This document shows, one piece after another, positions 1,124 through 23,877 of a DNA stretch of 32,000 bases. Position numbers and translations under genes: made by a program. A model generated the notes under the pieces. The model was not told the DNA's origin. It did not search any database and saw only the letters and a list, made by a program, of their open reading frames with translations. The stretch's first letter is position 1. Each line of letters starts with the position of its first letter. Source of the stretch: an uncultured archaeon (GTDB lineage Archaea > Iainarchaeota > Iainarchaeia > Iainarchaeales > CSSED10-239); contig CAZPGO010000030.1 of assembly GCA_964586355.1 (NCBI GenBank), positions 30,001-62,000 on the forward strand. The letters are read 5' to 3'.

Positions 1124-2773
1124 ATGGATTATTCATTACAAGGTCTAAATAATTATTTATCTACTAAAATAATTTCTGATTATTGGATAAAAAAAATATA
1201 TCCTCCAGAAATAAAGGAAGCACACGAAAAAAGGCAATTACATATACACGATCTAAGCACATTAGGACCTTATTGTGTAGGTTGGGATCTACAATTTTTA
1301 TTAAGAAATGGTTTTAAGGGAGGTCTTGGTAAAATTGTTGCATCTGCTCCAAAACATTTTGATATTGCATTAGGTCAAATAGTTAATTTCATTTATACTC
1401 TTCAAGGAGAAGCAGCAGGTGCTCAAGCTTTTAGTAATTTTGATACTCTTTTAGCTCCTTTTATTTTTTATGATAATCTGGATTATAAAAGAGTAAAGGC
1501 AGATCTTGAAAAATTTATTTATAATATGAATGTTCCAACAAGGGTTGGATATCAAACTCCATTTTCAAATATAACCTTAGATCTAACAATACCATCAACT
1601 CTAAAAAACGAATCAGTAATAATTGCAGGAAAACCTATGGACAAAACCTATGGGGAATTCCAAGAACAAGTTGATATGTTTAATAAAGCAATTTTAGAAA
1701 TTTTTTATGAAGGTGATGCTGGAGGAAACATGTTTTCATTTCCAATACCTACAATAAATGTTACTAGTGACTTTAATTGGGATAGTGATCTTGCAAATAA
1801 AATAATTGATCTAACCATAAAATATGGTACCCCTTATTTTGCAAACTTTGTAAATTCTGATATGAAACCAGAAGATGCTAGAAGTATGTGTTGTAGATTA
1901 AGATTAGATAATCGTGAGCTTCAAAAAAGAGGAGGAGGGTTATTTGGATCTAATCCTCTAACAGGATCTATTGGTGTTGTAACAATTAACCTTGCACAGA
2001 TAGGTTATCTTGCAAAAACAAAAGAAGAGTATTTTGAAAGACTTGGTTATTTAATGGATCTTGCTAAAAAATCATTAGATCTAAAAAGAAAGATTGTTGA
2101 AAAGTATACAGAGGATGGACTATACCCTTATTCTAAATACAATCTTTCACAGATACATGATAGATTTGGATCTTATTGGAAAAATCATTTTTCTACTATT
2201 GGTCTACTTGGTATGAACGAATCTGCTGTTAATTTTTTAGGTGAAGGCATATATACAGAAAAAGGTCAGGCTTTTGCTATTGAAGTTATGGATTTTATGA
2301 GAGATAGAATACAAAAATATCAAGAAGATACAGGAAATTTATATAATCTAGAAGCAACTCCAGGAGAGAGTACTACTTATAGATTTGCAACTTATGATAA
2401 AAAAGAGCATCCTTCAATAATTGTTGCTAATGAAGAAAATTATCAACAAGGTGCTCAGCCATATTATACAAATTCAACACAATTACCAGTAAATTATACA
2501 ACAGATATTTTTGATGTCTTGGATTTACAAGACGATTTACAATGTAAGTACACTGGTGGAACAGTTCTTCATTTTTTTATTGGTGAAAAAAAACCTTCTA
2601 GAGAAGCAATAAAATCATTAATAAAAAAAATCTCTAAAAATTACAAATTACCATACTTTACATTTAGTCCAACATTTTCAATTTGTCCAAAACACGGATA
2701 TATTTTTGGAGAGCATGAATATTGCCCACTTTGTGATAAAGAAATAGGGTATATAGAAAAGGAGGAAAAGTAA
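1124..2773 (+). CDS. nrdD: Anaerobic (class III) ribonucleoside-triphosphate reductase NrdD, large piece. The frame is open upstream to 740 and encodes an ATP-cone, so the true N-terminus is almost certainly upstream of 1124.
   Basis: NrdD hallmarks are present: LGPYCVGWDL, ARSMCCRLRLD (thiyl-radical Cys loop), GGGLFGSNPLTGSIGVVTINL, and the C-terminal Zn-ribbon CPKH...CPLC. The upstream in-frame translation (740-1123) gives an ATP-cone-like YILNRKDEKITYNIYKIKLAILKAL...AYVIYRKQ and the conserved DWQVKENSN. Confidence 0.9.
   Translation: MDYSLQGLNNYLSTKIISDYWIKKIYPPEIKEAHEKRQLHIHDLSTLGPYCVGWDLQFLLRNGFKGGLGKIVASAPKHFDIALGQIVNFIYTLQGEAAGAQAFSNFDTLLAPFIFYDNLDYKRVKADLEKFIYNMNVPTRVGYQTPFSNITLDLTIPSTLKNESVIIAGKPMDKTYGEFQEQVDMFNKAILEIFYEGDAGGNMFSFPIPTINVTSDFNWDSDLANKIIDLTIKYGTPYFANFVNSDMKPEDARSMCCRLRLDNRELQKRGGGLFGSNPLTGSIGVVTINLAQIGYLAKTKEEYFERLGYLMDLAKKSLDLKRKIVEKYTEDGLYPYSKYNLSQIHDRFGSYWKNHFSTIGLLGMNESAVNFLGEGIYTEKGQAFAIEVMDFMRDRIQKYQEDTGNLYNLEATPGESTTYRFATYDKKEHPSIIVANEENYQQGAQPYYTNSTQLPVNYTTDIFDVLDLQDDLQCKYTGGTVLHFFIGEKKPSREAIKSLIKKISKNYKLPYFTFSPTFSICPKHGYIFGEHEYCPLCDKEIGYIEKEEK
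2761..2766 (+). promoter_or_regulatory. Shine-Dalgarno-like GGAGGA serving the mini-ORF at 2774
   Basis: GGAGGA lies 8 nt upstream of the ATG at 2774, inside the last codons of the nrdD large piece. The same GGAGG-type motif precedes dnaK, the pilin genes and the ORF at 5699. Confidence 0.5.
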
Positions 2774-2926
2774 ATGGAAGCAAATATAGAAGAATTAAAA
2801 GCAAAAAGACAAAAATGTGAAATTTTTTCTAGAGTAGTAGGATATGTAAGAAGAGTAGATGCATGGAATTATGGTAAACAAGCAGAGTTTCATGATAGAA
2901 AATTATTTAATACAGATAAGAAGTAA
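2774..2926 (+). CDS. 50-aa glycyl-radical peptide of NrdD, encoded as a separate ORF (not in the ORF track)
   Basis: The ORF translates as MEANIEELKAKRQKCEIFSRVVGYVRRVDAWNYGKQAEFHDRKLFNTDKK. It contains the class III RNR glycyl-radical signature SR(V/I)xGY...WNxGKxxEFxDRK. It starts immediately after, and in the same frame as, the nrdD TAA at 2771-2773. Confidence 0.7.
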   Translation: MEANIEELKAKRQKCEIFSRVVGYVRRVDAWNYGKQAEFHDRKLFNTDKK

Positions 2927-2931
2927 TTAAC

Positions 2932-3600
2932 ATGGAATTAAGAATAGGTGCAATAGAAAAATTTAGCACAATAGATTATCCTGACAAGATATCTTGTGCT
3001 ATTTTTTTAAAAGGGTGTAATTTTTTTTGTGGTTTTTGTTATAATAAACAACTAGTTTGTAAAGAACTATTGGACACCACTCCTGATCTTCCCCTAGAAG
3101 AACTTAAAGAATTTTTAAACAAACGTGTTGGCTTAATTGATGCGGTTGTTGTTAGTGGTGGAGAACCAACAATATATGGCGATTCTCTTATTTCTTTTAT
3201 TAGAGAGATAAAAACAAAAGGTTATCTAATAAAATTAGACACAAATGGTTCAAATCCAAAAGTATTAAAACAAATAATTTCTGAAAATTTGGTTGATTAT
3301 ATTGCTATGGATTTAAAAGATTCTTTTGAAAATTATGATAAATATACTTTTGTTCCTGTTGAAAACATCAAAGAGTCTATTAATTTAATCCTAAATTCCA
3401 ACATAGCTCATGAGTTTAGAGTTACCACTCACCCAGAACTAACTTTGGAGAATTTTAATATTTTATTAACTTATGTTCCTGAGCAAAAGGTTCTTGTCCA
3501 AGATTTCATGAACACCAATACTATAAAAGAATATCCTGATGATTCTAAAACAATTTTTTCACAATTATCAAAAGAGGACAAAAGATATATTTTACGTTAA
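2932..3600 (+). CDS. nrdG: Anaerobic RNR activating protein (radical SAM)
   Basis: The CNFFCGFC motif is the CxxxCxxC radical-SAM cluster, and VVSGGEPT is the SAM-binding GGEP motif. The gene sits directly downstream of nrdD. Confidence 0.88.
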   Translation: MELRIGAIEKFSTIDYPDKISCAIFLKGCNFFCGFCYNKQLVCKELLDTTPDLPLEELKEFLNKRVGLIDAVVVSGGEPTIYGDSLISFIREIKTKGYLIKLDTNGSNPKVLKQIISENLVDYIAMDLKDSFENYDKYTFVPVENIKESINLILNSNIAHEFRVTTHPELTLENFNILLTYVPEQKVLVQDFMNTNTIKEYPDDSKTIFSQLSKEDKRYILR

Positions 3601-3624: not shown

Positions 3625-5670
3625 ATGGTTTTTGTAAATACAATAATAAGCAATTCAAATGAAAAAGAAATATTTTCTAAAGAAAAATTAACTATTTTAT
3701 TATTTGAAAATATGTGTACTATTGGTTCACCAAATTTAAATCTTGCAGAAAAACTTTCTTTTTTAATAGTTGATAAAGTTAATGCTAGTTTTTCAGAGTC
3801 TATTTCTTTTGAAAAATTAGATGATATTATAAAAGAGGTTTTATTTAAAGAAAATCAAAAAGATCTCTTACAAGCATATATTTTTAAGAAATCAAAACCT
3901 GATCATTCTTTAATAGATCAGGAGCTTAAAGAAAACATATTAAAATTTCTTTTGAATTTAAATGATTCTGAAAATATTTCTTCTTATTTAATAAATTTAA
4001 ATAGTCAATTAAATGAATTACAGAATAACACCCATGAAAAAATAAACAAAAATATTTTTGATTATATAAGAGAGGGTTTATTTTACCCAAGTTCAAAGAT
4101 TTTAAAAAGTATTTCAAAAAATCATTATTTTTCCTCCACATTTTCTTTTCATATTGAGGATACCTTAGAGTCTATTTTTGATAATTTGTCTTTATCTAGT
4201 AAGCTTCAAAAACAAGGTCTCTCAATATCAATTGATTTAAGTAAAATAAGATCTCAAAAAGAAAAAATAAAATCTATTAATGAAAATGCTTGTGGACCTA
4301 TTAAAGTTGCAAATTTATTTAGATCTGCAAAGGCTATGATTGGGTACTCTATAAAAACATCTAGTAATGTTTTTTCTATATCTATTGAACATCCAGATAT
4401 AATCTCTTTAATTAATTATAATTTTTCAGAAACCTCTGATAATTTCACAATTTTAGTTCCAAATAGATTTGTTGAAAACTATATGAATAATGAAGACTAT
4501 GTTATTGAGACTGTTTTTGGTAATCAAAAAATAACTCCTTCAATAATTTTTGATCTAATTTGTTCAAAAATAGCTATTGGGGAAAAAATAAATCTTGTCT
4601 TTGTAGATCTGATGTCTAAAAAAAACCCAATCTCTTTAGAACAAAAAATTTTTTCAATTTCTTCTGTCGGTTATCAACCAGTAATTGACAAAAGTGGTTT
4701 TCTCTCGGGGGTAATTGATGTTTCAAAATTAGTAAATATTTTAGGAGATGCTAAAACTTTTGATTGGCAAAAACTAAAAGCAATTATTTGGGATTCTGTA
4801 GAATTTTTAGATAATCTTATTGATTCTTCTAATTATATTAATGATGAATATATGCAAGCGGCAAAAGATTATAGGCAGATCTATTTGTCTATAACTGGTT
4901 TTGCTACTCTTTTATCTAAACTAAATATTTCCTATAATAGTGATGATGCGATCTTTTTTGCAGAAACTCTATCTAATTTTATATCCTACTATGCAAAGCT
5001 AAAATCCACTGAGCTTGCAAAAGAAAGAGGTCCATTTTTAAAATTCATAAAAAGTAAATATGAACAATCCTCTTTTTCTTTTGAAAAATCTTCTATTCAA
5101 AAAACTTTGTTTTCAAATGATCTAAGCAAATCTAAAAAATTATTAAATAATATGCCTTTAATTGATTGGGTTGAACTTAGAAATAATATTAAGAAATACG
5201 GACTTAGAAACGCAACTACTTTTGGAATAATTTTTTCTGATTTTTATTCTATTGCAAATGATTCTACTAACTCTGTTAATCCTATTTTGAGTTATAAAAG
5301 TACATATCTAATTAATGGTTATAAATCAGAAAAAATAAAGAAAGAACTTTCCTTAACTTCCCCAGACATAAATGAAAATTGGACAGAAGAGGAAATTGAT
5401 TCTTTTTTATCTAATGATCTAAAAAAGTTGTTTGTTAAAGCCAAAAATATAGATCCTTATTTTTTAATAAGATTACAATCTGTTTTTGAAAAAAATTCTG
5501 ACGGGCTTACAAATATAAATATTTTTATTACTGATAATTATACAATCTTAGATATAAAGAATCTAATAATCGAAAGTTACATGTTAGGAAATTCCTTATT
5601 TTTGCCAGAAAAAATAAATGGTCAAAATGACTTTAATACAGATAAAAAAACGAAAAAAAATAGTTTATAA
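3625..5670 (+). CDS. Ribonucleotide reductase-fold protein (NrdJ/NrdA-like alpha chain with a degenerate ATP-cone), predicted to be catalytically inactive
   Basis: The protein is collinear with RNR alpha-chain motifs, but every motif is degraded. SSTFSFHIEDTLESIF replaces SxCFxLxxxDSxESIF. GLSISIDLSKIR...ACGPIKVANLF replaces GGGxGxxxSxLRP...SGPVSFM. KTSSNVFSISIEHPDII replaces GGRRGAxxxxLxxxHPDI. SSVGYQP...SGFLSGVIDVSKLV replaces NPCGEQP...ESCNLGSINLSKFV. RQIYLSITGFATLL replaces RRIGLGxMGxAxxL. GLRNATTFGIIFSD...NSVNPI replaces GxRNxxxxxIAPTG...SGIEP. Confidence 0.75.
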   Translation: MVFVNTIISNSNEKEIFSKEKLTILLFENMCTIGSPNLNLAEKLSFLIVDKVNASFSESISFEKLDDIIKEVLFKENQKDLLQAYIFKKSKPDHSLIDQELKENILKFLLNLNDSENISSYLINLNSQLNELQNNTHEKINKNIFDYIREGLFYPSSKILKSISKNHYFSSTFSFHIEDTLESIFDNLSLSSKLQKQGLSISIDLSKIRSQKEKIKSINENACGPIKVANLFRSAKAMIGYSIKTSSNVFSISIEHPDIISLINYNFSETSDNFTILVPNRFVENYMNNEDYVIETVFGNQKITPSIIFDLICSKIAIGEKINLVFVDLMSKKNPISLEQKIFSISSVGYQPVIDKSGFLSGVIDVSKLVNILGDAKTFDWQKLKAIIWDSVEFLDNLIDSSNYINDEYMQAAKDYRQIYLSITGFATLLSKLNISYNSDDAIFFAETLSNFISYYAKLKSTELAKERGPFLKFIKSKYEQSSFSFEKSSIQKTLFSNDLSKSKKLLNNMPLIDWVELRNNIKKYGLRNATTFGIIFSDFYSIANDSTNSVNPILSYKSTYLINGYKSEKIKKELSLTSPDINENWTEEEIDSFLSNDLKKLFVKAKNIDPYFLIRLQSVFEKNSDGLTNINIFITDNYTILDIKNLIIESYMLGNSLFLPEKINGQNDFNTDKKTKKNSL

Positions 5671-5698: not shown

Positions 5699-5995
5699 AT
5701 GCCATTATTTAAAGGTCCTATAAAAAGACCTGCAGTAAGGAAACCAAAAAAACCTACCCTGAATAAATTTGCAAATTCAAAAAAACCAAATAACTCTACA
5801 CAAATAAGTAAAGATTTAAGAGAATCATTTGGAGATTTAGCAAAGTCTTTAATGCAAAACAAATCAAAACCAAAAACAAAAAGCACAATAACTAGCGAAC
5901 AGCAAAAAAAGAAAGCAATTTTACTAACAAGACAAAAACAAAGAATAAAGCAAATTAAGAAAGCAAAAAAAGAAAATAAAAAAAGATCTGCATAA
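5699..5995 (+). CDS. Small, very basic Lys-rich protein (98 aa), function unknown
   Basis: A strong GGAGTG SD sits 8-9 nt upstream of the ATG. The ORF is extremely K/R/Q-rich with no hydrophobic core. It is convergent with cdc48. Confidence 0.5.
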   Translation: MPLFKGPIKRPAVRKPKKPTLNKFANSKKPNNSTQISKDLRESFGDLAKSLMQNKSKPKTKSTITSEQQKKKAILLTRQKQRIKQIKKAKKENKKRSA

Positions 5996-15491: not shown

Positions 15492-17405
15492 ATGGCATCA
15501 TATATAGATGAATTAAAATCTCAATTAAACAAAGCTAAAGAGAATAAACCAGAAGAAGTTAAATTAGAAAAAAAGCAGATGGATTGGTCTCAACCAGATA
15601 AACAAAAAACACAAGATCTTTCTTCTGAAAAATCTATAACTGAAGAAAATATTTCCAACACAAAAAATAATAATCAGTCTAAATCAGATAGTTTCTTAGA
15701 ATTAGATTCTTTAAAAGATGCTTTTTCAAACAAATCTAATAAGCAACCATATTCTGATATTAATAAAGTCCAAACAGAGCAAAATAAAGATTCTGATTTA
15801 AATTTTAAGGAATCTCACCAAGAATCAAAACTAGCATCTAAGGAAGATTCTGTCTTTGATGAGAATATAAAAGAAACAATTGATAGATCTGTTAATTCTG
15901 GAAAAATAGATGTTGAAAAAATAGAGACTAAAAAAGATAAACCTAATTTTGAAAAAGTATGGGCCGAAAATTCTCATTTAGTTACAAAGTATGGTGATGT
16001 TGAGATTTATAGAATTGAAAATCAAGCACTTTATCATTATAAAATTCCAACCCCAAAACCAACAGCAAGTCAGAAATTAATAATTAATACCTTAAAGGAA
16101 GCAGCAACAAGATTAATTACAATAGATCCTTATAAGATCAGAGATCCTTTACAAAGAAAAAACATTTATTATCAAAAAATTTTAGATATTTTAGAAAATG
16201 CACCTGAAATAAATGTTCCAAAGCACATGTTTGATTTTTATGCAGGGGCAGTTGTAAAAGAAATGGTTGGTTTTGGTCAAATTGAACCATTATTACAAGA
16301 TGACAAGTTAGAAGAAATTATGATCGTTGGTCCAAATAAACCAACTTATGTTTATCATAGAGATTATGGTATGATGACTAGTAATGTTGTATTTTATTCT
16401 GATGATGGGATCTTAGAAATTATTGATAAAATTTCAAGAATCTTAGGAAGAAGAGTTGATATTTCTAATCCTTTATTAGATGCAAGACTTCCAGATGGTT
16501 CTAGAGTAAATGCAACAATTCATCCAGCATCCATTGATGGGGCAACAATCACTATTAGAAAATTTAAAGCTGACCCTTACACTATTGTAGATCTAATTAA
16601 ATTTCGTACAATTAACTTAGAAGTTGCTGGATTTTTATGGTGTATTGTTGATGGGTTTGGGTCAAAACCAGCAAACATAGTTATATCTGGTGGAACAGGT
16701 TCAGGAAAAACTACTTTATTAAATGTTTTAGCAAACTTCATTCCAGATTCTAATCGTGTATTAACTATTGAAGACACTGCTGAGCTAAAATTACCTATAA
16801 AACAAGTAATTAGGTTTGAAGGACGACCACCTGGCTTAGAAGGTAAAGGTGAACTAACATTAGATGTTTTAGTAAAAAACAGTTTAAGAATGAGACCTGA
16901 TAGAGTAATAGTTGGTGAAATTAGACACACAGAAGCTTTATCTTTATTTACTGCTATGAATACCGGCCACGATGGTTGTATGGGTACAATTCACGCGAAC
17001 TCTCCTAGAGAAACATTAGTAAGAATAACGTCCCCCCCAATGGAAGTGCCTTTGATGATGCTTGCCGGTCTAGATTTTATAGTTGTTCAGAAAAGATTAA
17101 ACACTAGTAAAGGAATGGTAAGAAGAATAGTAAATATTGCTGAGATTAGTGGTGTTTTAGATAATGATCCAAAGGCAGATATTATTTTTAAATGGGATCC
17201 AAACACAGATTCTTTAAAAAGAACAGAGGCACCTATAAAGTTTTTTGAAATGATAAAAACATATACGAATTATACAGATCAGGATATAAAGAATATTTTG
17301 ACAAAAAGAATAAGTATTTTAAATGATTTAGTTACTAAGAATATACATGCTCTTGACGATGTGTCAGAAACTATTCAACATGAGTATCTTGATAGAAAAT
17401 CATAA
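15492..17405 (+). CDS. Type IV filament assembly ATPase (archaeal FlaI/EpdL/TadA-like, T2SSE family) with a roughly 155-aa low-complexity N-terminal extension
   Basis: Walker A is SGGTGSGKTTLLN, Walker B is RPDRVIVGEIR, and the His box is TGHDGCMGTIHAN. The conserved LPDGSRVNA segment is also present. Confidence 0.9.
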   Translation: MASYIDELKSQLNKAKENKPEEVKLEKKQMDWSQPDKQKTQDLSSEKSITEENISNTKNNNQSKSDSFLELDSLKDAFSNKSNKQPYSDINKVQTEQNKDSDLNFKESHQESKLASKEDSVFDENIKETIDRSVNSGKIDVEKIETKKDKPNFEKVWAENSHLVTKYGDVEIYRIENQALYHYKIPTPKPTASQKLIINTLKEAATRLITIDPYKIRDPLQRKNIYYQKILDILENAPEINVPKHMFDFYAGAVVKEMVGFGQIEPLLQDDKLEEIMIVGPNKPTYVYHRDYGMMTSNVVFYSDDGILEIIDKISRILGRRVDISNPLLDARLPDGSRVNATIHPASIDGATITIRKFKADPYTIVDLIKFRTINLEVAGFLWCIVDGFGSKPANIVISGGTGSGKTTLLNVLANFIPDSNRVLTIEDTAELKLPIKQVIRFEGRPPGLEGKGELTLDVLVKNSLRMRPDRVIVGEIRHTEALSLFTAMNTGHDGCMGTIHANSPRETLVRITSPPMEVPLMMLAGLDFIVVQKRLNTSKGMVRRIVNIAEISGVLDNDPKADIIFKWDPNTDSLKRTEAPIKFFEMIKTYTNYTDQDIKNILTKRISILNDLVTKNIHALDDVSETIQHEYLDRKS

Positions 17406-17422
17406 TTATAAATTGATTGTTA

Positions 17423-18574
17423 ATGACAGAAGTAAATGATAAACAATTAGAATTATTAAAAAAAGAGATGTCTAAATCTAAAGATAACAGCAGTAATATA
17501 GATCTAGATGCTGTTGATAGTATAGTAAACAAACTAAAACAAAAAGACAAATCTAAAGGCATAACAGGCCCAGTTTCAGAATCTCATTTAAAAGAATTAA
17601 GAGATATTATTTCTGAAGGAAAATTAACAAAATTAAATATAGACACTGAAGCAAAGCTAATGGAAGGTTCAGAATCTGTTATAGACAAAAAAATAGTGAA
17701 ATTATATAAACCTTTTCAAGGATTTATAAACACAATTGTAAAATACATGCTTAAGCAAAGTATAGGCAAAAAGATTTCTTTTTATCTTTATTCTGCAAAT
17801 ATTAAAAGAACATTAGTACAACATTTGGTTTTAGCAGTTTTGTTTTCTATGTTAGTTACTGTTTTTTTATCTTTTTTATTATTTATTATTTTAACTGTTA
17901 TTAATCCATTATTTTTAATAGTTCTTCCATTTATTGCTTTAGCAATTTTTCTATTTTCTATTTTTATATTTTCATATATTTTGCCAATGCAGAAAGCAAA
18001 GCAAAGAGGAGCTCAAATAGATACTGAATTGCCATATGCTTTAAGACACCTGTCTACCGAATTACAAGCAGGTATTGGATTATATAAAACTCTACAATCT
18101 ATTGCAAAAAACGATTATGGTTTATTAGCTGACGAGCTTAGTAGAACAATAATTGAAATAGAGAACGGGACTGATACAAAAACAGCATTAAGACATACTG
18201 CATTAAGAAGTCAATCCAAAAATTTCAATATTGCTTTGTTTCATATAATAAGAACATTAAATACTGGTGGAAATTTAGCACAAAGTATTGATGGAGTTGC
18301 AGAAACAGTATCTTTTGATCTTTTAGAGTCTGCTAAACAGTTTGGAGAAAAAATGAATTTTTTTGGAATTATTTTTATATTTGTAGCTATTGTTTTGCCG
18401 GTGTTTTTAGCAGTTTTATCAGCAATAGCAAATGCGCCAATTGGTCAAGGTGGCGAATTGTTTTTACCAGGGGTTTTAAGTGCAGAATTATTAGGGGTTG
18501 TTTATTTAGTGGTACTTCCTGTAATTTTAGGATTTATATCCTTTTATATTAAAGTAATAGAACCAAAAACATAG
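17423..18574 (+). CDS. Pilus platform membrane protein, single T2SSF domain (TadB/TadC/EpdJ-like)
   Basis: A T2SSF-type helical domain (ELPYALRHLSTELQAGIGLYKTLQSIA...GGNLAQSIDGVAETV) is flanked by TM helices. The ORF track starts at the TTG at 17417, and the ATG at 17423 is two codons in. Confidence 0.8.
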   Translation: MTEVNDKQLELLKKEMSKSKDNSSNIDLDAVDSIVNKLKQKDKSKGITGPVSESHLKELRDIISEGKLTKLNIDTEAKLMEGSESVIDKKIVKLYKPFQGFINTIVKYMLKQSIGKKISFYLYSANIKRTLVQHLVLAVLFSMLVTVFLSFLLFIILTVINPLFLIVLPFIALAIFLFSIFIFSYILPMQKAKQRGAQIDTELPYALRHLSTELQAGIGLYKTLQSIAKNDYGLLADELSRTIIEIENGTDTKTALRHTALRSQSKNFNIALFHIIRTLNTGGNLAQSIDGVAETVSFDLLESAKQFGEKMNFFGIIFIFVAIVLPVFLAVLSAIANAPIGQGGELFLPGVLSAELLGVVYLVVLPVILGFISFYIKVIEPKT

Positions 18575-18576
18575 AT

Positions 18577-19485
18577 GTGATTAAAGTGAAATTATTAGAT
18601 AAATATCAAATATATCTTTACTCAATAAAAATAAAAGTTCCTGCATTATATTGGATTGCTTCATTTTTTTTGATAGCTATAATATTTAGTGCCTTAATTT
18701 ATTTAATTTTTAGAAGTTCTATTTTTTCAATTTTGGTTTTTACGGTTGTTTTGGATTTGGGGGTGGGTACCCCTTTATTTTTATATACAAAACATATTGA
18801 AACAATTGAAAGATTTTGGCCAGATGCATTAAGATTGATTGCAGATACTATGAAAGCTGGAACTTCTTTTGATTTTGCATTAAGAGAAGTGGCATCAGCT
18901 GATTTTGGACCAGTTTCTGTAGAGTTTAATGAAGTAGTAAGAAGATTAGAGATGGGCGATACAACAAATGATGCATTAACTCATTTATCTATAAGAGTTG
19001 ATTCTAAAATAATAAAAAGAACAGTTACAATTATTCAAGAGTGTTTAAGAACTGGTGCTCAGTTAGCTGAAGTTTTAGATGAAATTGCAAATGATACTAA
19101 ATATATGTACAGAGTAAAAGTAGAAAGACAAACAAAAACCCTTTTACAAACTATTTTTGTTTTTGCTGCAGGAGGAGTTATAGCACCTTTTATTTTTGGA
19201 TTAACAAACGTTATTACACAGTTTTTAACAAATGTTGCAACAGCATCAGGCATTGCAAATGAAACTTCTATGGCTATTGCAATAGCAACACAGACAACTA
19301 TAATTTTATTATTAGATATTTATGTTATGATTGAAGTTGCAGCAGCATCATTAATGATAAGTCTTATGAGAAATGGAAAAATAAGCGGTGCTTTTATTTA
19401 TTTTCCTATAATGCTTACAGTAGCATATATTGTGTATTCTATATCTCAATTTATTTTAAATCAGATGTTAGTTACTATGGTATAA
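18577..19485 (+). CDS. Second pilus platform membrane protein, single T2SSF domain (TadB/TadC/EpdK-like)
   Basis: The domain reads FWPDALRLIADTMKAGTSFDFALREVA...TGAQLAEVLDEIANDT and is flanked by TM helices. It has a GTG start 2 nt after the upstream stop. Confidence 0.8.
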   Translation: MIKVKLLDKYQIYLYSIKIKVPALYWIASFFLIAIIFSALIYLIFRSSIFSILVFTVVLDLGVGTPLFLYTKHIETIERFWPDALRLIADTMKAGTSFDFALREVASADFGPVSVEFNEVVRRLEMGDTTNDALTHLSIRVDSKIIKRTVTIIQECLRTGAQLAEVLDEIANDTKYMYRVKVERQTKTLLQTIFVFAAGGVIAPFIFGLTNVITQFLTNVATASGIANETSMAIAIATQTTIILLLDIYVMIEVAAASLMISLMRNGKISGAFIYFPIMLTVAYIVYSISQFILNQMLVTMV

Positions 19486-19505
19486 ATTTTTTAATGTGAT
19501 AAAAT

Positions 19506-19697
19506 ATGAAAAAAACACAGAAACTAGAAAAAATAATTAAAGATCAAAAAGCACAGATCTCTTTAGAATTTTTATTAATTATGGGAGTTGTTGTTTTAAT
19601 TTCATTAATTGTTGGTTTTTATTTAAAACAGACTTCTGCAAATCAAGCAAATAAAATTACAGATTATCAGGATAAAAGTTATCAAGGTAATAACTAA
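19506..19697 (+). CDS. Small class III signal peptide (pilin-like) protein, 63 aa
   Basis: The N-terminus is ...KDQKA|QISLEFLLIMGVVVLISLIVGF. Gln is at +1 and Glu at +5, followed by a hydrophobic helix. This is the archaeal Epd-type prepilin signature. Confidence 0.6.
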   Translation: MKKTQKLEKIIKDQKAQISLEFLLIMGVVVLISLIVGFYLKQTSANQANKITDYQDKSYQGNN

Positions 19698-19744
19698 ATT
19701 GGTTTGTGGTTGTTTTTATTGGTTTAGTTTACAAAAAAGAAAAG

Positions 19745-19754
19745 TATATAAATA
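19745..19754 (+). promoter_or_regulatory. Candidate TATA box for pilin paralog 1
   Basis: The element tatataaata lies about 55-65 nt upstream of the ATG at 19810. The same element is duplicated upstream of paralog 2. Confidence 0.35.
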
Positions 19755-19809
19755 TATTAGTAATAATATTAATATATTATTTTTTTTATTAATTTATGGA
19801 GGGAAACTT

Positions 19810-20001
19810 ATGTTTAAAAAGAAAAAAGGACAAGGTGCTTTAGAGTATCTTTTGTTAATAGGTGGTGCGGTATTAATTACTGTTATTGTTATTGCATTAT
19901 TGGTTGGTATGGGTGGTCAAAGTAGAGACACAGCTCAAGATCAAGCAAATAGAGTTCAATCAGCAACAGATGTACCACAACCAGCTCAAATAATTTCTGT
20001 T
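19810..20001 (+). repeat. Conserved 5' module (about 64 codons) shared by pilin paralogs 1-3, copy 1
   Basis: The nucleotide sequence is near-identical to 20485-20676 and 20989-21183. Most differences are at third codon positions. Confidence 0.8.
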
Positions 20002-20364
20002 GACGCATCTTATAATGAATGTACACAGAATGGAGATGCAACAATAACAGTAAATTGGAGAGCTTTAGGTGAAGGAGGAAGTCATAGGTTATATGTTTCT
20101 GATTCATCTAATAAAGATCTAAATATTACACATTTGCCAAATACTAGTTCTGGTGAGGGTAATGTGGGTCATGAAATAGGAAATAGTGGTGGTACTACTG
20201 GCCCAGATGATCTAATTATTTTAAATCCAAACAATTTAGCTGTTACTGATTTCAATATTGGAAATGTAAAAAAATGTGGTGATTCTTATTATGTAAGAAT
20301 TGAAACAACAAAAAATAATCAAACAGTTGTTTCTGCTAAATACCAGTTTAGTTGGGTTAATTAA
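19810..20364 (+). CDS. Type IV pilin paralog 1 (184 aa): class III signal peptide plus FN3/Ig-like globular domain
   Basis: The N-terminus is MFKKKKG|QGALEYLLLIGGAVLITVIVIALLVG, with Q at +1 and E at +5. GGAGGG lies 6 nt upstream of the ATG. The ORF-track start at 19699 adds an implausible leader. Confidence 0.8.
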   Translation: MFKKKKGQGALEYLLLIGGAVLITVIVIALLVGMGGQSRDTAQDQANRVQSATDVPQPAQIISVDASYNECTQNGDATITVNWRALGEGGSHRLYVSDSSNKDLNITHLPNTSSGEGNVGHEIGNSGGTTGPDDLIILNPNNLAVTDFNIGNVKKCGDSYYVRIETTKNNQTVVSAKYQFSWVN

Positions 20365-20376
20365 TTTTAATCCTTC

Positions 20377-20385
20377 TTTTTTTTT
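20377..20385 (+). terminator. Oligo-T tract (T9) after pilin paralog 1, a candidate archaeal terminator
   Basis: A run of nine T begins 13 nt after the stop codon and is followed by a new TATA-like element. Confidence 0.35.
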
Positions 20386-20404
20386 CAAAAAATTAAATAG
20401 AAAC

Positions 20405-20414
20405 ATATATAAAT
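20405..20414 (+). promoter_or_regulatory. Candidate TATA box for pilin paralog 2
   Basis: The element atatataaat matches the one upstream of paralog 1. It is followed by the same ...tttatt(t)aatggagg(g)aaa(c/t)ttATG leader. Confidence 0.35.
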
Positions 20415-20484
20415 GTATTTTACTTAATATATATTAATGTTTTTTATAAAACAAAAATAAAATTTATTTAATGGAGGAAAATTT

Positions 20485-20676
20485 ATGTTTAAAAAGAAAA
20501 AAGGACAAGGTGCTTTAGAGTACCTTTTGTTAATCGGTGGTGCTGTGTTAATTGCAGTTATTGTAATTGCTTTATTAGTTGGTATGGGTGGTCAAAGTAG
20601 AGATACTGCTCAAGATCAAGCAAATAGAGTACAACAAGCAACAGATGTTCCACAACCAGCTCAAATAGTTTCTGTA
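20485..20676 (+). repeat. Conserved 5' pilin module, copy 2
   Basis: See copy 1. Confidence 0.8.
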
Positions 20677-20964
20677 AGAGCTCCATATGATGAATGTGGT
20701 GATGGAAATATTAGTGTTAGTTGGAGACCACTTGGCGAAGGCGGAAGTAATGAAATGGTTGTTTTAGATTCTAGCAATACTGAATTACAGATCGATGATG
20801 CAGGTACAAGAAAAGTACTTGATCCAAATGACTTAACTTTTGATGTTAATGTAACTTTAACTTCTGCTCATGAGTGTGGTGATTCTTACTATGTAAAAAT
20901 AATTACAGAGAAGAACAATCAAGAAGTTACTTCATCAGCATATCAATTTAGTTGGATTGACTAA
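20485..20964 (+). CDS. Type IV pilin paralog 2 (159 aa)
   Basis: It has the same signal peptide and helix as paralog 1. It shares the WRPLGEGGS landmark and the C-terminal CGDSYYVKIITEKNNQEVTSSAYQFSWID. Confidence 0.85.
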   Translation: MFKKKKGQGALEYLLLIGGAVLIAVIVIALLVGMGGQSRDTAQDQANRVQQATDVPQPAQIVSVRAPYDECGDGNISVSWRPLGEGGSNEMVVLDSSNTELQIDDAGTRKVLDPNDLTFDVNVTLTSAHECGDSYYVKIITEKNNQEVTSSAYQFSWID

Positions 20965-20988
20965 GTTTAATTTTAAAAGGAATTGTAA

Positions 20989-21183
20989 TTGATCTTCACA
21001 AAAAAAAAAGGACAAGGTGCTTTAGAGTATCTTTTGCTAATAGGTGGTGCGGTATTAATTGCGGTGATTGTAATTGCTTTGTTAGTTGGTATGGGTGGTC
21101 AAAGTAGAGATTCTGCCCAAAATCAATCTAATAAAGTACAACAAGCATCAGATCTTCCGCAACCTGCTCAAATAGTATCAATA
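20989..21183 (+). repeat. Conserved 5' pilin module, copy 3
   Basis: See copy 1. Confidence 0.75.
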
Positions 21184-21537
21184 AATGCAGTTTATAGTAA
21201 TTGTCCTAGTTTTGATGGAGATCAAAACAAAACTTCTAAAATTTCTTTTACTTGGAGACCACTAGGAGAAGGGGGTACTTATCATTTATCTTTTTATGAT
21301 TTTAGAGATCGCCAGTTAAAGATAATGTCTGCTGAGGGGCACACCATCGATAGTGATGGTGTTGATTCTTTAATTTTAGATCCAACAGACTTAACCTTAG
21401 ATATAAATGTTTTAAGATTAAATACTACTGAAATTGTACATAATTGTGGAAATTCATATTATGCGCAAATAATTACTGAAAAAAATAATCAAAAAGTAAA
21501 ATCATCAATTTTTGGTTTTAGTTGGATTCCAAATTAA
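20989..21537 (+). CDS. Type IV pilin paralog 3 (182 aa), with a TTG start and an A10 tract at codons 4-7
   Basis: The N-terminus is (M)IFTKKKG|QGALEYLLLIGGAVLIAVIVIALLVG. The C-terminus is CGNSYYAQIITEKNNQKVKSSIFGFSWIPN. Confidence 0.8.
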   Translation: MIFTKKKGQGALEYLLLIGGAVLIAVIVIALLVGMGGQSRDSAQNQSNKVQQASDLPQPAQIVSINAVYSNCPSFDGDQNKTSKISFTWRPLGEGGTYHLSFYDFRDRQLKIMSAEGHTIDSDGVDSLILDPTDLTLDINVLRLNTTEIVHNCGNSYYAQIITEKNNQKVKSSIFGFSWIPN

Positions 21538-21587
21538 TTTTTAAGAAAAAAATAATTTTTTAAAAATAATAAAAACAGGAGTTTATT

Positions 21588-22058
21588 TTGAAAAAAAATA
21601 TTAATTCAAACAAAGGACAAGGTGCCTTAGAATATTTGCTAATTATCGGTGGTGTTTTAGTTATTGCTGTTGTTGTTATCTCATTAATTATGTCAACAGG
21701 CAGATCAAACACAGACAAAGTAAATGAATCAGAACAACAACATTCTCAATTAATAGATAGCACTATTATTCCACCAATGATTCTTAAAGTAAATTGTTTA
21801 GATCAAGGTGGTAATGACACTAATATTATAGTAACTTACAACAGATCTACAACAAATGGGGTTGCTGAATATTGTTTAGTTTTAAACGAATCAATAACCA
21901 CAAATTGTAAACCACCTGCAACAACAGGCAATGTTGTTTTTTTTGATAATATTTCTGGATTAGCTACTGGAGTAAAACACAAAGTTTCTTTAGTTGCAAA
22001 AAGAGGAGATTATATGTCTCAACCTGCTTTACCAACACCAACTTGTGAGGTTGAATAA
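21588..22058 (+). CDS. Type IV pilin paralog 4 (156 aa), divergent
   Basis: The N-terminus is ...SNKG|QGALEYLLIIGGVLVIAVVVISLI. A different beta-rich, Cys-containing C-terminal domain follows. The start is TTG, preceded by AGGAG. Confidence 0.75.
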   Translation: MKKNINSNKGQGALEYLLIIGGVLVIAVVVISLIMSTGRSNTDKVNESEQQHSQLIDSTIIPPMILKVNCLDQGGNDTNIIVTYNRSTTNGVAEYCLVLNESITTNCKPPATTGNVVFFDNISGLATGVKHKVSLVAKRGDYMSQPALPTPTCEVE

Positions 22059-22074
22059 TTTTAATTTGGTAGCT

Positions 22075-22254
22075 ATGAAAAAATTAATTTTAGATCAAAG
22101 AGCTCAAGTATCTGTTGAATATCTAATCTTAATTGTTTTTGGAATGATGCTTGTAATCACAACAGGTATTATAGTAATTAATATCAATACTTTAGTAGCT
22201 GTTGCAAAATCTAAAATATTATCTTATAGAGATAATATCATTGCTACTTTATAA
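22075..22254 (+). CDS. Small class III signal peptide (minor pilin-like) protein, 59 aa
   Basis: The N-terminus is MKKLILDQRA|QVSVEYLILIVFGMMLVITTGIIV. The ORF-track start at 21994 overlaps paralog 4 and is unlikely. Confidence 0.6.
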   Translation: MKKLILDQRAQVSVEYLILIVFGMMLVITTGIIVININTLVAVAKSKILSYRDNIIATL

Positions 22255-22265
22255 TTTAGAAAAAT

Positions 22266-23393
22266 ATGTTTTCTATTTTTAATTTTCTGATTTTTTTTGT
22301 TTTATTAATTTTTATTATTCTTTGTACTTATTTTGATTTAAAAAAAAGAATTATTCCTAATAAATTAATTTTTATTTTTTTAATACTTTTTTTATGTTTG
22401 TTTTTAATAAAACTGGTTTTGTTTTTTTCATTTTCTTTATTATATAATACTTTTTTGTCAGTAACAATAACTTTTTTTGTTTGTTATTTACTTTGGGAGT
22501 TTGGGGTGATTGCCGGAGGAGATCTAAAATTTTTTTTTGTAATTTCTATTTTACTGCCTTTTAATCTCTCTGTTTTTTCTAATTTTTTTAATATTGGTTT
22601 AAATCTTACTTTATTAAAACACCCTATTTTTTCCATTTTTTTATTGTTTTTTAGTTTTTTAATGATGTTACCCTATATTTTATTATTTTCTATTATTAAA
22701 CTATTTACAAAAAAAAATCTTATATACTTAAAAAGATTTTTTTTTACAAAAAAGAATTTTGAAAATTTATTTTTAAGTACTCTTTCTTTATTTTTAGTTT
22801 CTATTATTGTAAGCTTTTTTGCTCTCTCTTTTAATTTGATTTTTTTGTTTATATTTTCTTTTATTTTGTTTAATTTAATTATGTTACTTAAAAATAAAAA
22901 TCAACATTATTTTATTTGCATTTTGATATTTTCTTTTTCTGTTTTAATTTTTTTAGAAATAATATTAAAACAATCTTTTTTTGTGTTTACAGATCTTGGT
23001 TTAATTTTTGTGATTAATATATCTGTCTCTTTTCTTTTGTTTTTAATAAAATTTACAAAAGAAAATATTTTAACAACCCCAATAAGTATTAAAAATTTAC
23101 AAGAGGGGGTAGTTCTATCTAAAAATTATTATTTTAATAAACAAACAAACAAATTAACTGTTGAAAACACCAGTTTTGTTAATCAATTCAAAAGATTAGT
23201 TTCTGGAACCTATTATCTTAACCTAAAAATAGATTCTAACAAAGCAGGGGGTCTAAAGAAAGAAGACATTGCTTTTTTAAATACTATGTATGAAAATAAT
23301 TTAATAGGCAACTGGATTTATGTTAAAAAAACATTGCCTTTTATGCCTGTTGTGTTAATAACTTTTATTGTTTTAAATTTTATAAAATTTTAA
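22266..23393 (+). CDS. Prepilin/preflagellin peptidase (A24 aspartyl protease; EppA/PibD/FlaK-like), enlarged to 375 aa
   Basis: The first catalytic Asp context is CTYFDLKKRIIPN. The second is GVIAGGDLKFFF (the GxGD box). The terminal LPFMPVVLI matches the PFxP motif. Confidence 0.8.
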   Translation: MFSIFNFLIFFVLLIFIILCTYFDLKKRIIPNKLIFIFLILFLCLFLIKLVLFFSFSLLYNTFLSVTITFFVCYLLWEFGVIAGGDLKFFFVISILLPFNLSVFSNFFNIGLNLTLLKHPIFSIFLLFFSFLMMLPYILLFSIIKLFTKKNLIYLKRFFFTKKNFENLFLSTLSLFLVSIIVSFFALSFNLIFLFIFSFILFNLIMLLKNKNQHYFICILIFSFSVLIFLEIILKQSFFVFTDLGLIFVINISVSFLLFLIKFTKENILTTPISIKNLQEGVVLSKNYYFNKQTNKLTVENTSFVNQFKRLVSGTYYLNLKIDSNKAGGLKKEDIAFLNTMYENNLIGNWIYVKKTLPFMPVVLITFIVLNFIKF

Positions 23394-23406
23394 AGATGTG
23401 TAATTT

Positions 23407-23877
23407 ATGATAAAAAATATTAAAGCACAAATTTCTGTAGAATTCATTATATTATTAGCTATATTTATGTTGTTTTTTCAAGCAACTATTTTGCCAACAA
23501 TAGAGTTTTCTGAAAATATTATAAAAGACACTCATAGCTTAAGTATAGCTAGTGATAATGTTTCTAGATTAATAACACATATAGAAAATTTTTCAAATAG
23601 TCCAGGGTATGGTAAAAGAAGTGTTTTTTTCTATCTTCCTGAGAATGCAACTATTACTTCTTGTGGTGGATCTGAGAATAACATAAAATATAATGTAAAA
23701 ATATCCACTCAAAACCCAATACCCTTAACTTGTGATAGTACTGGTGACTGTAATTTTACAAAAAATATAGAAACCTCTTTAGAAATTAGTTGTTCTCCAA
23801 ATAAGATAGGCCCTGGTTTTTCAGGAAATATTGTTTTAGAAAAAACAAGTATAGGGGAAATTATAATTAATGGTTAG
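23407..23877 (+). CDS. Class III signal peptide protein (pilin-like, 156 aa)
   Basis: The N-terminus is MIKNIKA|QISVEFIILLAIFMLFF. A Cys-rich beta domain follows. Confidence 0.65.
   Translation: MIKNIKAQISVEFIILLAIFMLFFQATILPTIEFSENIIKDTHSLSIASDNVSRLITHIENFSNSPGYGKRSVFFYLPENATITSCGGSENNIKYNVKISTQNPIPLTCDSTGDCNFTKNIETSLEISCSPNKIGPGFSGNIVLEKTSIGEIIING

Follow-up and report, generated by a model that had tools for sequence, protein, structure and literature searches.

An archaeal nrdD gene divided between its Zn ribbon and its glycyl radical loop: a probable two-subunit class III ribonucleotide reductase

The class III ribonucleotide reductases (RNR) of phage T4, Escherichia coli, Thermotoga maritima, Prevotella copri and Streptococcus thermophilus consist of a single-chain NrdD that works with the activase NrdG, and in characterised NrdDs the glycyl radical loop (Gly loop) forms the C-terminus of the same polypeptide. 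Here we describe a nrdD locus in which this loop is the product of a separate gene of 50 amino acids (aa). It lies in a stretch of 32,000 nucleotides from an uncultured archaeon of the Iainarchaeota (GenBank assembly GCA_964586355.1, contig CAZPGO010000030.1, positions 30,001 to 62,000 of the forward strand), hereafter the window, to which all coordinates refer. The locus holds the same parts as the single-chain systems, namely an ATP-cone, the barrel, a finger loop, a Zn ribbon, an RVxGY loop and an adjacent nrdG, and the chemistry of the two forms is presumably the same. The break falls inside the glycyl radical domain as it was defined in the work on P. copri (PMC11226230). Very probably, the locus encodes a two-subunit class III RNR in which the radical glycine resides on a separately translated peptide that is an obligate subunit.

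The closest functional likeness is found in the pyruvate formate-lyase (PFL) system: GrcA/YfiD of E. coli and Y06I of phage T4 are also small stand-alone proteins with a glycyl radical loop, act in trans with a barrel protein, and are activated by the radical S-adenosylmethionine (SAM) activase of the enzyme (PMC8683613). Only the PFL spare parts have been validated as such (PMC8683613). GrcA is of the PFL type, measures about 127 aa and rescues an enzyme with its own radical domain, whereas the peptide described here is of the NrdD type and is 38 to 60 aa long in most lineages. It gave no match to the PFL-type Gly_radical family (PF01228/IPR011140); the Pfam search at E <= 0.01 returned only PF13597, and NCBIfam only NrdD models. 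The original prediction, made from the letters of the window, had likened the peptide to GrcA/YfiD. This holds as an analogy, that of a glycyl radical segment supplied in trans, but not as a spare part, the adjacent large subunit having no Gly loop of its own. All 45 homologues of the peptide collected are small (44 to 63 aa).

Among the RNRs, NrdJa/NrdJb of Pseudomonas aeruginosa likewise divide a single-chain form over two adjacent genes, with the C-terminal module on the second (PMC9669993). That enzyme differs in being a B12-dependent class II RNR whose second chain is substantial, with IscU-like and Zn-finger domains and without a radical site (PMC9669993). Our locus shares the two adjacent genes, but it is not a class II enzyme with an IscU-like second chain, and its Zn ribbon is on the first chain.

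Stand-alone proteins with an NrdD-type Gly loop also stand in public records. PHROG phrog_4132 ('unknown function') matches the window peptide, and the archaeal virus ANMV-1 has a 144-aa protein (AJP62049, 'anaerobic ribonucleoside triphosphate reductase'; KP703175, 3213-3647; locus L163 in our set) in which a CxxC...CxxC segment is followed by the loop (CEMYSRIVGYLRPVNQWNKGK). The viral open reading frame (ORF), named oxygen-sensitive RNR in its source paper, differs from ours by this CxxC...CxxC segment of its own and by having no nrdD core beside it: the 7 kb that flank it contain no gene annotated as one and code mostly for hypothetical proteins. On both counts it is a candidate viral spare part for a host class III RNR.

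Glycyl radical enzymes of more than one polypeptide are known as well, such as benzylsuccinate synthase and 4-hydroxyphenylacetate decarboxylase. In these the radical glycine is on the large catalytic subunit, and the small subunits are Fe-S-binding or structural. All characterised glycyl radical enzymes, class III RNR included, carry the radical glycine on the catalytic chain. Neither a split NrdD nor a stand-alone NrdD-type radical module is described in the full-text literature that we searched (subscription journals lay outside it), including RNR family surveys and a June 2026 review of glycyl radical enzymes, in agreement with what the original prediction had supposed. In databases these small ORFs are either unnamed or entered under 'anaerobic ribonucleoside-triphosphate reductase', and NCBIfam has no model for them. 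A large natural NrdD family with a separate radical subunit of ~50 aa would be a new subunit architecture for a textbook enzyme. It would also offer a natural system for studying how the buried Gly loop exits the barrel to meet the activase and returns, and it would bear on the upkeep of oxygen-sensitive nucleotide reduction in DPANN archaea and Patescibacteria. In practice, many nrdD genes of metagenome-assembled genomes (MAGs) will seem truncated, with a tiny partner ORF that is easily overlooked or unnamed; surveys of RNRs that require a Gly motif at the C-terminus may for this reason drop the clade or assign it wrongly.

The two reading frames and their domains

The nrdD frame terminates in ...CPKHGYIFGEHEYCPLCDKEIGYIEKEEK-TAA. 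The ATG at 2774-2776 directly abuts this stop in the same frame and opens the 50-aa ORF MEANIEELKAKRQKCEIFSRVVGYVRRVDAWNYGKQAEFHDRKLFNTDKK. The features of the locus are:

740-2773, + strand: nrdD large subunit (677 aa counted from 740) with ATP-cone, alpha/beta barrel with finger loop, and Zn ribbon; without glycyl radical loop
758-1030, + strand: ATP-cone domain (PF03477 match at residues 7-97, E 4e-11)
1889-1894, + strand: Cys-Cys (C384, C385) of the finger-loop motif S-M-C-C-R, candidate thiyl radical site
2684-2734, + strand: Zn ribbon C-P-K-H...C-P-L-C (Cys649, His652, Cys662, Cys665), wholly inside the large subunit
2735-2770, + strand: C-terminal tail of the large subunit, DKEIGYIEKEEK, with the D-x-E-I-G-Y signature common to split and long-linker fused forms
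2761-2765, + strand: Shine-Dalgarno-like GGAGG, inside the last codons of the large ORF, with 8 nt between the motif and ATG 2774
2771-2773, + strand: TAA stop of the large subunit, the same in 11 contigs of other samples
2774-2926 (stop included), + strand: small subunit, the 50-aa stand-alone glycyl radical peptide, with N-terminal helix, beta hairpin bearing the Gly, and C-terminal tail
2816-2818, + strand: Cys15 of the peptide, 8 residues ahead of the radical Gly
2840-2842, + strand: GGA codon of Gly23, the predicted radical-bearing glycine in S-R-V-V-G-Y; invariant; in the concatenated model it is residue 700 and forms the tip of the hairpin
2932-3600, + strand: nrdG, radical-SAM activating enzyme (TIGR02495 (NrdG2) at 176 bits against a cut-off of 131; Pfam Radical_SAM and Fer4_12 match)

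Membership in the class III NrdD family was judged by PF13597, TIGR02487 and NF006126. Between them the two ORFs make up one NRDD domain: the large piece corresponds to positions 1-532 of the 562 of PF13597 (E 9e-176, 586 bits against a cut-off of 26) and the small ORF to positions 530-562 (E 6e-9). The NCBIfam NrdD models are split between the ORFs in the same way, NF006126 giving the large piece 971 bits against a cut-off of 548. By alignment to described enzymes, the large piece corresponds to T. maritima NrdD (651 residues) from residue 101 to 610, as far as the CPVC Zn knuckle, and the peptide to the stretch of P. copri NrdD that surrounds the radical Gly711 (residues 709-736). A glycyl radical motif in the large piece, which would have spoken against a division of the enzyme, was looked for by profile mapping and by a search for R-V-x-G-Y, and none was found. 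Sequence and Pfam/NCBIfam mapping thus bear out the original prediction of an nrdD split by an in-frame TAA-ATG, with the radical loop on the 50-aa ORF. The cognate activase gene is adjacent, nrdG beginning 5 nt past the stop of the small ORF.

Apart from the radical site, the large subunit keeps all catalytic motifs and, as judged by sequence comparison, is under constraint. C384 and C385 do not vary in either of two alignments, A1 and A2, of 21 and 33 homologues respectively, and neither do the asparagines of the NxN flap or the Zn ligands C649/H652/C662/C665. The corresponding SCCR motif has been discussed for T. maritima NrdD (PMC4493059), and the equivalence of C384/C385 to the catalytic cysteines rests on this literature. 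The four Zn ligands form a predicted metal site that aligns with the Zn site (Cys-His-Cys-Cys) of the T. maritima enzyme, where the ribbon is an insertion that follows the last barrel strand and precedes the Gly loop (PMC4493059). Since these ligands lie on the large piece and the radical-Gly region on the peptide, the alignments place the break between Zn ribbon and Gly loop.

At this point the chain is lengthened. The extra linker of the original prediction stands, although its figure of about 28 residues should be roughly 23: there are 26 residues from CPLC to the Cys preceding EIFSRVVGY, versus 3 in short fused relatives (CPKC-GAK-CEVYSRVVGY), the short fused forms running straight through CPKC-GAK-C/T-EVYSRVVGY. 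The K-R-Q-x-C before the hairpin and the D-x-E-I-G-Y after the ribbon are common to the split forms and to a fused long-linker protein (P0101), and such fused long-linker forms align across the split junction. The break appears to sit in a surface linker between Zn ribbon and Gly loop that is already long in some fused relatives. Within the peptide, the position of Cys15 is Cys in 137 of 145 stand-alone representatives, and Cys or Thr in fused NrdDs. The conserved Cys possibly makes a metal or redox contact with the large subunit; a role as Zn ligand tethering both chains is not required, the large piece already having a Cys-His-Cys-Cys set like that of T. maritima NrdD.

An AlphaFold2 model of the concatenated large and small chains, built on 100 aligned rows that included small peptides, reached a mean predicted local distance difference test score (pLDDT) of 83. 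Confidence was lowest at the junction (62, residues 671-680). In the peptide part, the model has a helix (679-687) and then a hairpin (693-698/701-704) that carries the Gly at its tip, with pLDDT 70-83. The fold agrees with that of solved class III RNRs, at TM-scores of 0.52-0.65 (model-normalised) and 0.61-0.74 (target-chain-normalised).

The 5' end of the large gene is unusual:

734-739, + strand: ATG followed immediately by an in-frame TGA (737-739), conserved in two strains

The region coding for the ATP-cone begins at 740, and no in-frame ATG, GTG or TTG occurs between 740 and 1124. Between the strains, 740-1123 shows 12 synonymous and 3 non-synonymous differences, with a ratio of non-synonymous to synonymous polymorphism (pN/pS) of 0.06; because synonymous differences dominate, this region is translated. 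Candidates for the start are read-through of the TGA and initiation at ATA 746, which is aligned with the Met of relatives. A start at 1124 would cost the large subunit its ATP-cone and NxN flap. The gene calls in databases that start with 'MW...' were made with TGA read as Trp.

Conservation and distribution of the split

The junction is reproducible. The exact peptide and a 96%-identical variant were each found on at least 12 contigs from other samples, and in all 11 contigs that were fetched ggaggaaaagTAAATG is identical; these represent two strains that differ at neighbouring positions. A sense codon at 2771-2773, looked for in these independent assemblies, was not seen, the stop being retained throughout. 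The next relatives, with large subunits ~80% identical and MAG labels 'archaeon' or 'Candidatus Diapherotrites archaeon', are split as well and have the same gene order: integrase, nrdD-large, an ORF of 47-49 aa, nrdG, class II RNR, one or two small ORFs and CDC48. In these relatives, however, stop and ATG are separated by 44 and 20 nt, and the small ORF is in a different frame from that of the window.

More widely, 38 distinct junctions have gaps from -14 (overlap) to +189 nt, plus one of 811; their relative frames are distributed 15/14/9 and their stop codons are TAA in 23, TAG in 9 and TGA in 6 cases. A gap of zero occurs in only two of them. From these comparisons the split is conserved and the junction geometry is not, the in-frame TAA-ATG being specific to the lineage of the window. 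With gaps, frames and stop codons so varied, read-through is not the general mechanism. A Shine-Dalgarno-like motif precedes 16 of the 38 small ORFs against a background of 8% (p = 1e-8). Together these comparisons show that translation of the small ORFs in relatives starts independently of the large gene. In the window, the ORF's own GGAGG site together with an ATG abutting the TAA suggests translational coupling. Over the 35 conserved codons of the small ORF, pN is 0.035-0.059 against a pS of 0.66-0.76 (pN/pS ~0.03-0.09), which by this measure places it under strong purifying selection. Junctions, independent contigs and pN versus pS together uphold the view of an evolved division into two genes, the second with a ribosome-binding site of its own, and not of a chance nonsense mutation. 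The order nrdD-large, small ORF, nrdG is found in 42 of 43 split loci. The exception, in a Bacillota MAG, has nrdD-large, nrdG and then the small ORF (L035, 5846-5983) with a GTG start and the gap of 811 nt.

The same split in related genomes and metagenomes, which the original prediction had proposed to look for, proved far more general than it supposed. Among the best 120 homologues of the large piece, some 108 stop after the Zn ribbon and a variable tail without Gly motif, and nine have a Gly loop. Split and fused loci were counted by a regular expression, which was broadened for loci lacking the exact Zn motif and for fused Q-R-I-T-G-Y variants. In 80 related loci from GTDB species genomes (a scan that contained nothing above 60% identity to the window), 36 were split and 42 fused, one ran off the contig end, and one had no detected Gly-loop ORF. 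By record title, the split loci belong to Pace-, Woese-, Nano- and Micrarchaeota and to Patescibacteria (Falkow-, Veblen-, Sacchari- and Moranbacteria), with single records titled Planctomycetota, Elusimicrobium and Bacillota. Several are titled 'uncultured Gammaproteobacteria', and their NrdD clusters with Patescibacteria sequences. Fused forms prevail in Bathyarchaeia, Syntrophomonas, Smithella and Desulfobacterales. The split is also present in 8 of the 65 IMG/VR loci, three of them on contigs of 94, 261 and 329 kb; the viral loci scored as lacking a Gly-loop domain are, as judged by eye, mostly fused forms with variant motifs.

A profile of the small peptide run against 1.84 billion cluster representatives gave 4612 matches at E <= 1e-3. 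The best 150 of these are all 44-149 aa long, 139 have an initial Met, and one seems to be a fragment of a fused protein; this ranking is biased to relatives of the query lineage and so gauges abundance, not proportion. In a neighbour-joining tree of 83 large subunits, split and fused forms are interleaved; its deep branches are short and carry no support values.

Some split loci deviate in the form of their small proteins. The three on the long contigs classed as viral (L118, L121 and L119, of 94, 261 and 329 kb) have small ORFs of 61-78 aa with a helical N-terminal extension (IEKIDEQIQQI..KLNDP.LC). The tail of the large subunit is charged and helix-like in L118, L119 and L079, and the sequences of this type of locus hint at a helix-helix tether between both chains. 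Stand-alone Gly-loop proteins of 91-126 aa with an extra N-terminal CxxC...CxxC were seen in L048 (3545-3829), L084 (3853-4161), P0256, P0269 and P0293; at least in L048 and L084 the adjacent large subunit retains its Zn ribbon despite the CxxC...CxxC on the small protein.

A two-subunit enzyme and the alternatives

The peptide is very probably an obligate subunit because the large subunit has no radical domain of its own. We infer that the two chains form a complex, that NrdG activates it, and that it carries out the class III reaction. The large gene would supply the catalytic body, that is the ATP-cone, the Zn ribbon and a barrel of ten strands that holds the Cys finger loop, and the 50-residue peptide would supply what is the C-terminus of a single-chain NrdD, a beta-hairpin loop with Gly23 and a tail lying over the barrel. 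The peptide would dock non-covalently, its Gly loop entering the barrel opposite the finger-loop cysteines. NrdG would remove the C-alpha hydrogen of the glycine, and the radical would then pass from Gly to Cys to substrate as in single-chain NrdD. One may speculate that the pay-off lies in the cost of damage, oxygen cleavage at the glycyl radical destroying a cheap replaceable peptide and not the ~78-kDa core.

A further step, which we put forward tentatively and hold to be rather doubtful, is that the peptide serves as a 'radical cartridge' that can be swapped: NrdG would be able to activate it whether bound to the core or free, and once oxygen had cut it at Gly23, its pieces would come away and an intact peptide would take their place. 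Docking, NrdG action and exchange are made plausible by two precedents, the restoration of oxygen-cleaved PFL in trans by YfiD/GrcA and T4 Y06I (PMC8683613), and the glycyl radical domain of P. copri NrdD, which is very mobile and believed to shift mostly as one rigid unit (PMC11226230). If this were true, ultra-small anaerobes (DPANN, Patescibacteria) and some phages would own a cheaply repairable class III RNR. There would also be a natural two-component glycyl radical enzyme, which would let experiments take apart how the radical is installed, how the radical domain docks and how it is turned over.

Several points weigh against an obligate two-subunit enzyme. The peptide's production, its binding and its radical are predictions from the genes, and a model of a concatenated chain speaks for compatibility with the canonical fold and says nothing on association; an earlier AlphaFold2 model, on a shallower alignment of 33 sequences, had left the Gly loop below pLDDT 50. 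Our evidence is at the level of loci, and a second, fused nrdD elsewhere in these genomes is possible. In the lineage of the window, the in-frame and gapless ORFs leave room for some read-through product, and the large gene has the anomalous ATG-TGA start. Finally, one archaeon MAG (L083) has an nrdD truncated after the Zn ribbon for which the pattern found no Gly-loop ORF within 2.8 kb downstream. An IMG/VR locus (L122) is truncated likewise, with no pattern match within 2.5-2.8 kb downstream on the same strand. Their partners may lie elsewhere or be too divergent for the pattern.

Of the competing explanations, an assembly or sequencing error, or a recent nonsense mutation that left an nrdD pseudogene, can be regarded as refuted: nothing more than the bare presence of an internal stop speaks for it, and it is contradicted by an identical junction in 11 contigs of other samples from two strains and by a split that is kept over phylum-level distances with both parts under purifying selection. 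Highly improbable, too, is that the TAA at 2771-2773 is read through or recoded at some frequency to yield a normal single-chain NrdD with a long linker. Such read-through would suit the gapless, in-frame ORFs of the window, the gapless in-frame TGA-ATG of one other locus (L020), the existence of fused relatives with an equally long linker (P0101), and the second in-frame stop, TGA 737-739, which stands at the 5' end of nrdD ahead of clearly translated sequence. Yet the closest relatives (~80% identical) have gaps of 20 and 44 nt and a different frame, the three frames are all represented among the 38 junctions (15/14/9), the small ORF starts with an ATG behind GGAGG at canonical spacing, and TAA is the normal stop of 24 of the 30 ORFs of the window.

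Nor does a role like that of GrcA/YfiD appear likely for the peptide, that is a reserve module which repairs an oxygen-cleaved full-length NrdD encoded elsewhere and of which the adjacent truncated nrdD is independent. The precedent is sound for PFL, where YfiD and T4 Y06I are validated (PMC8683613), and the role would fit the ANMV-1 ORF of 144 aa, which combines a Zn ribbon with a Gly loop and has no annotated nrdD core in the 7 kb that flank it. At the split loci, however, the adjacent large subunit lacks a radical loop and nevertheless is strongly constrained, with its catalytic motifs intact; the small ORF lies between nrdD and nrdG in 42 of the 43; and the peptide does not match the PFL-type Gly_radical family. 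Most split loci, moreover, come from records of DPANN and Patescibacteria, which are small-genome lineages. In such lineages a second nrdD seems unlikely.

Other features of the locus and the window

The nrdD allele of the window is free of inteins. Close relatives (P0047, P0051, L001-L005 and L152-L156) have an intein of 321 aa inserted at ~1555/1556, between ...TRVGYQ and TPFSNIT...; it begins with Cys1 in CMSEDTEILT, ends with ...ITGN before Thr+1, and contains LAGLIDADG-like motifs, and a Pfam scan of the insert gave no match. Protein trans-splicing by a split intein was considered for the junction of the two nrdD ORFs and rejected, the 26 residues between Zn ribbon and Gly hairpin being too few for an intein.

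Directly after nrdG, at 3625-5670, lies a class II-type RNR (ATP-cone and Ribonuc_red_lgC), a position that is kept in the lineage of the window. Its best solved match is T. maritima NrdJ, and it scores 186 bits against a cut-off of 961 for the NCBIfam NrdJ model. Between this gene and CDC48, an ORF at 5699-5995 encodes a very basic, Lys-rich protein of 98 aa that gave no Pfam match; four relatives (L001, L005, L152 and L158) have an ORF of 92-98 aa in the same position.

The rest of the window is archaeal in content, with RFC, the PolD large subunit, CDC48 and an archaeal type IV pilus locus. The G+C content is 27%, and of the 30 ORFs of the window two end in TGA. The pilus locus (15492-23877) comprises a T2SSE-type ATPase, two T2SSF-type membrane proteins, an archaeal prepilin peptidase, and five small ORFs that encode class III signal peptides, the signal of one being weak.

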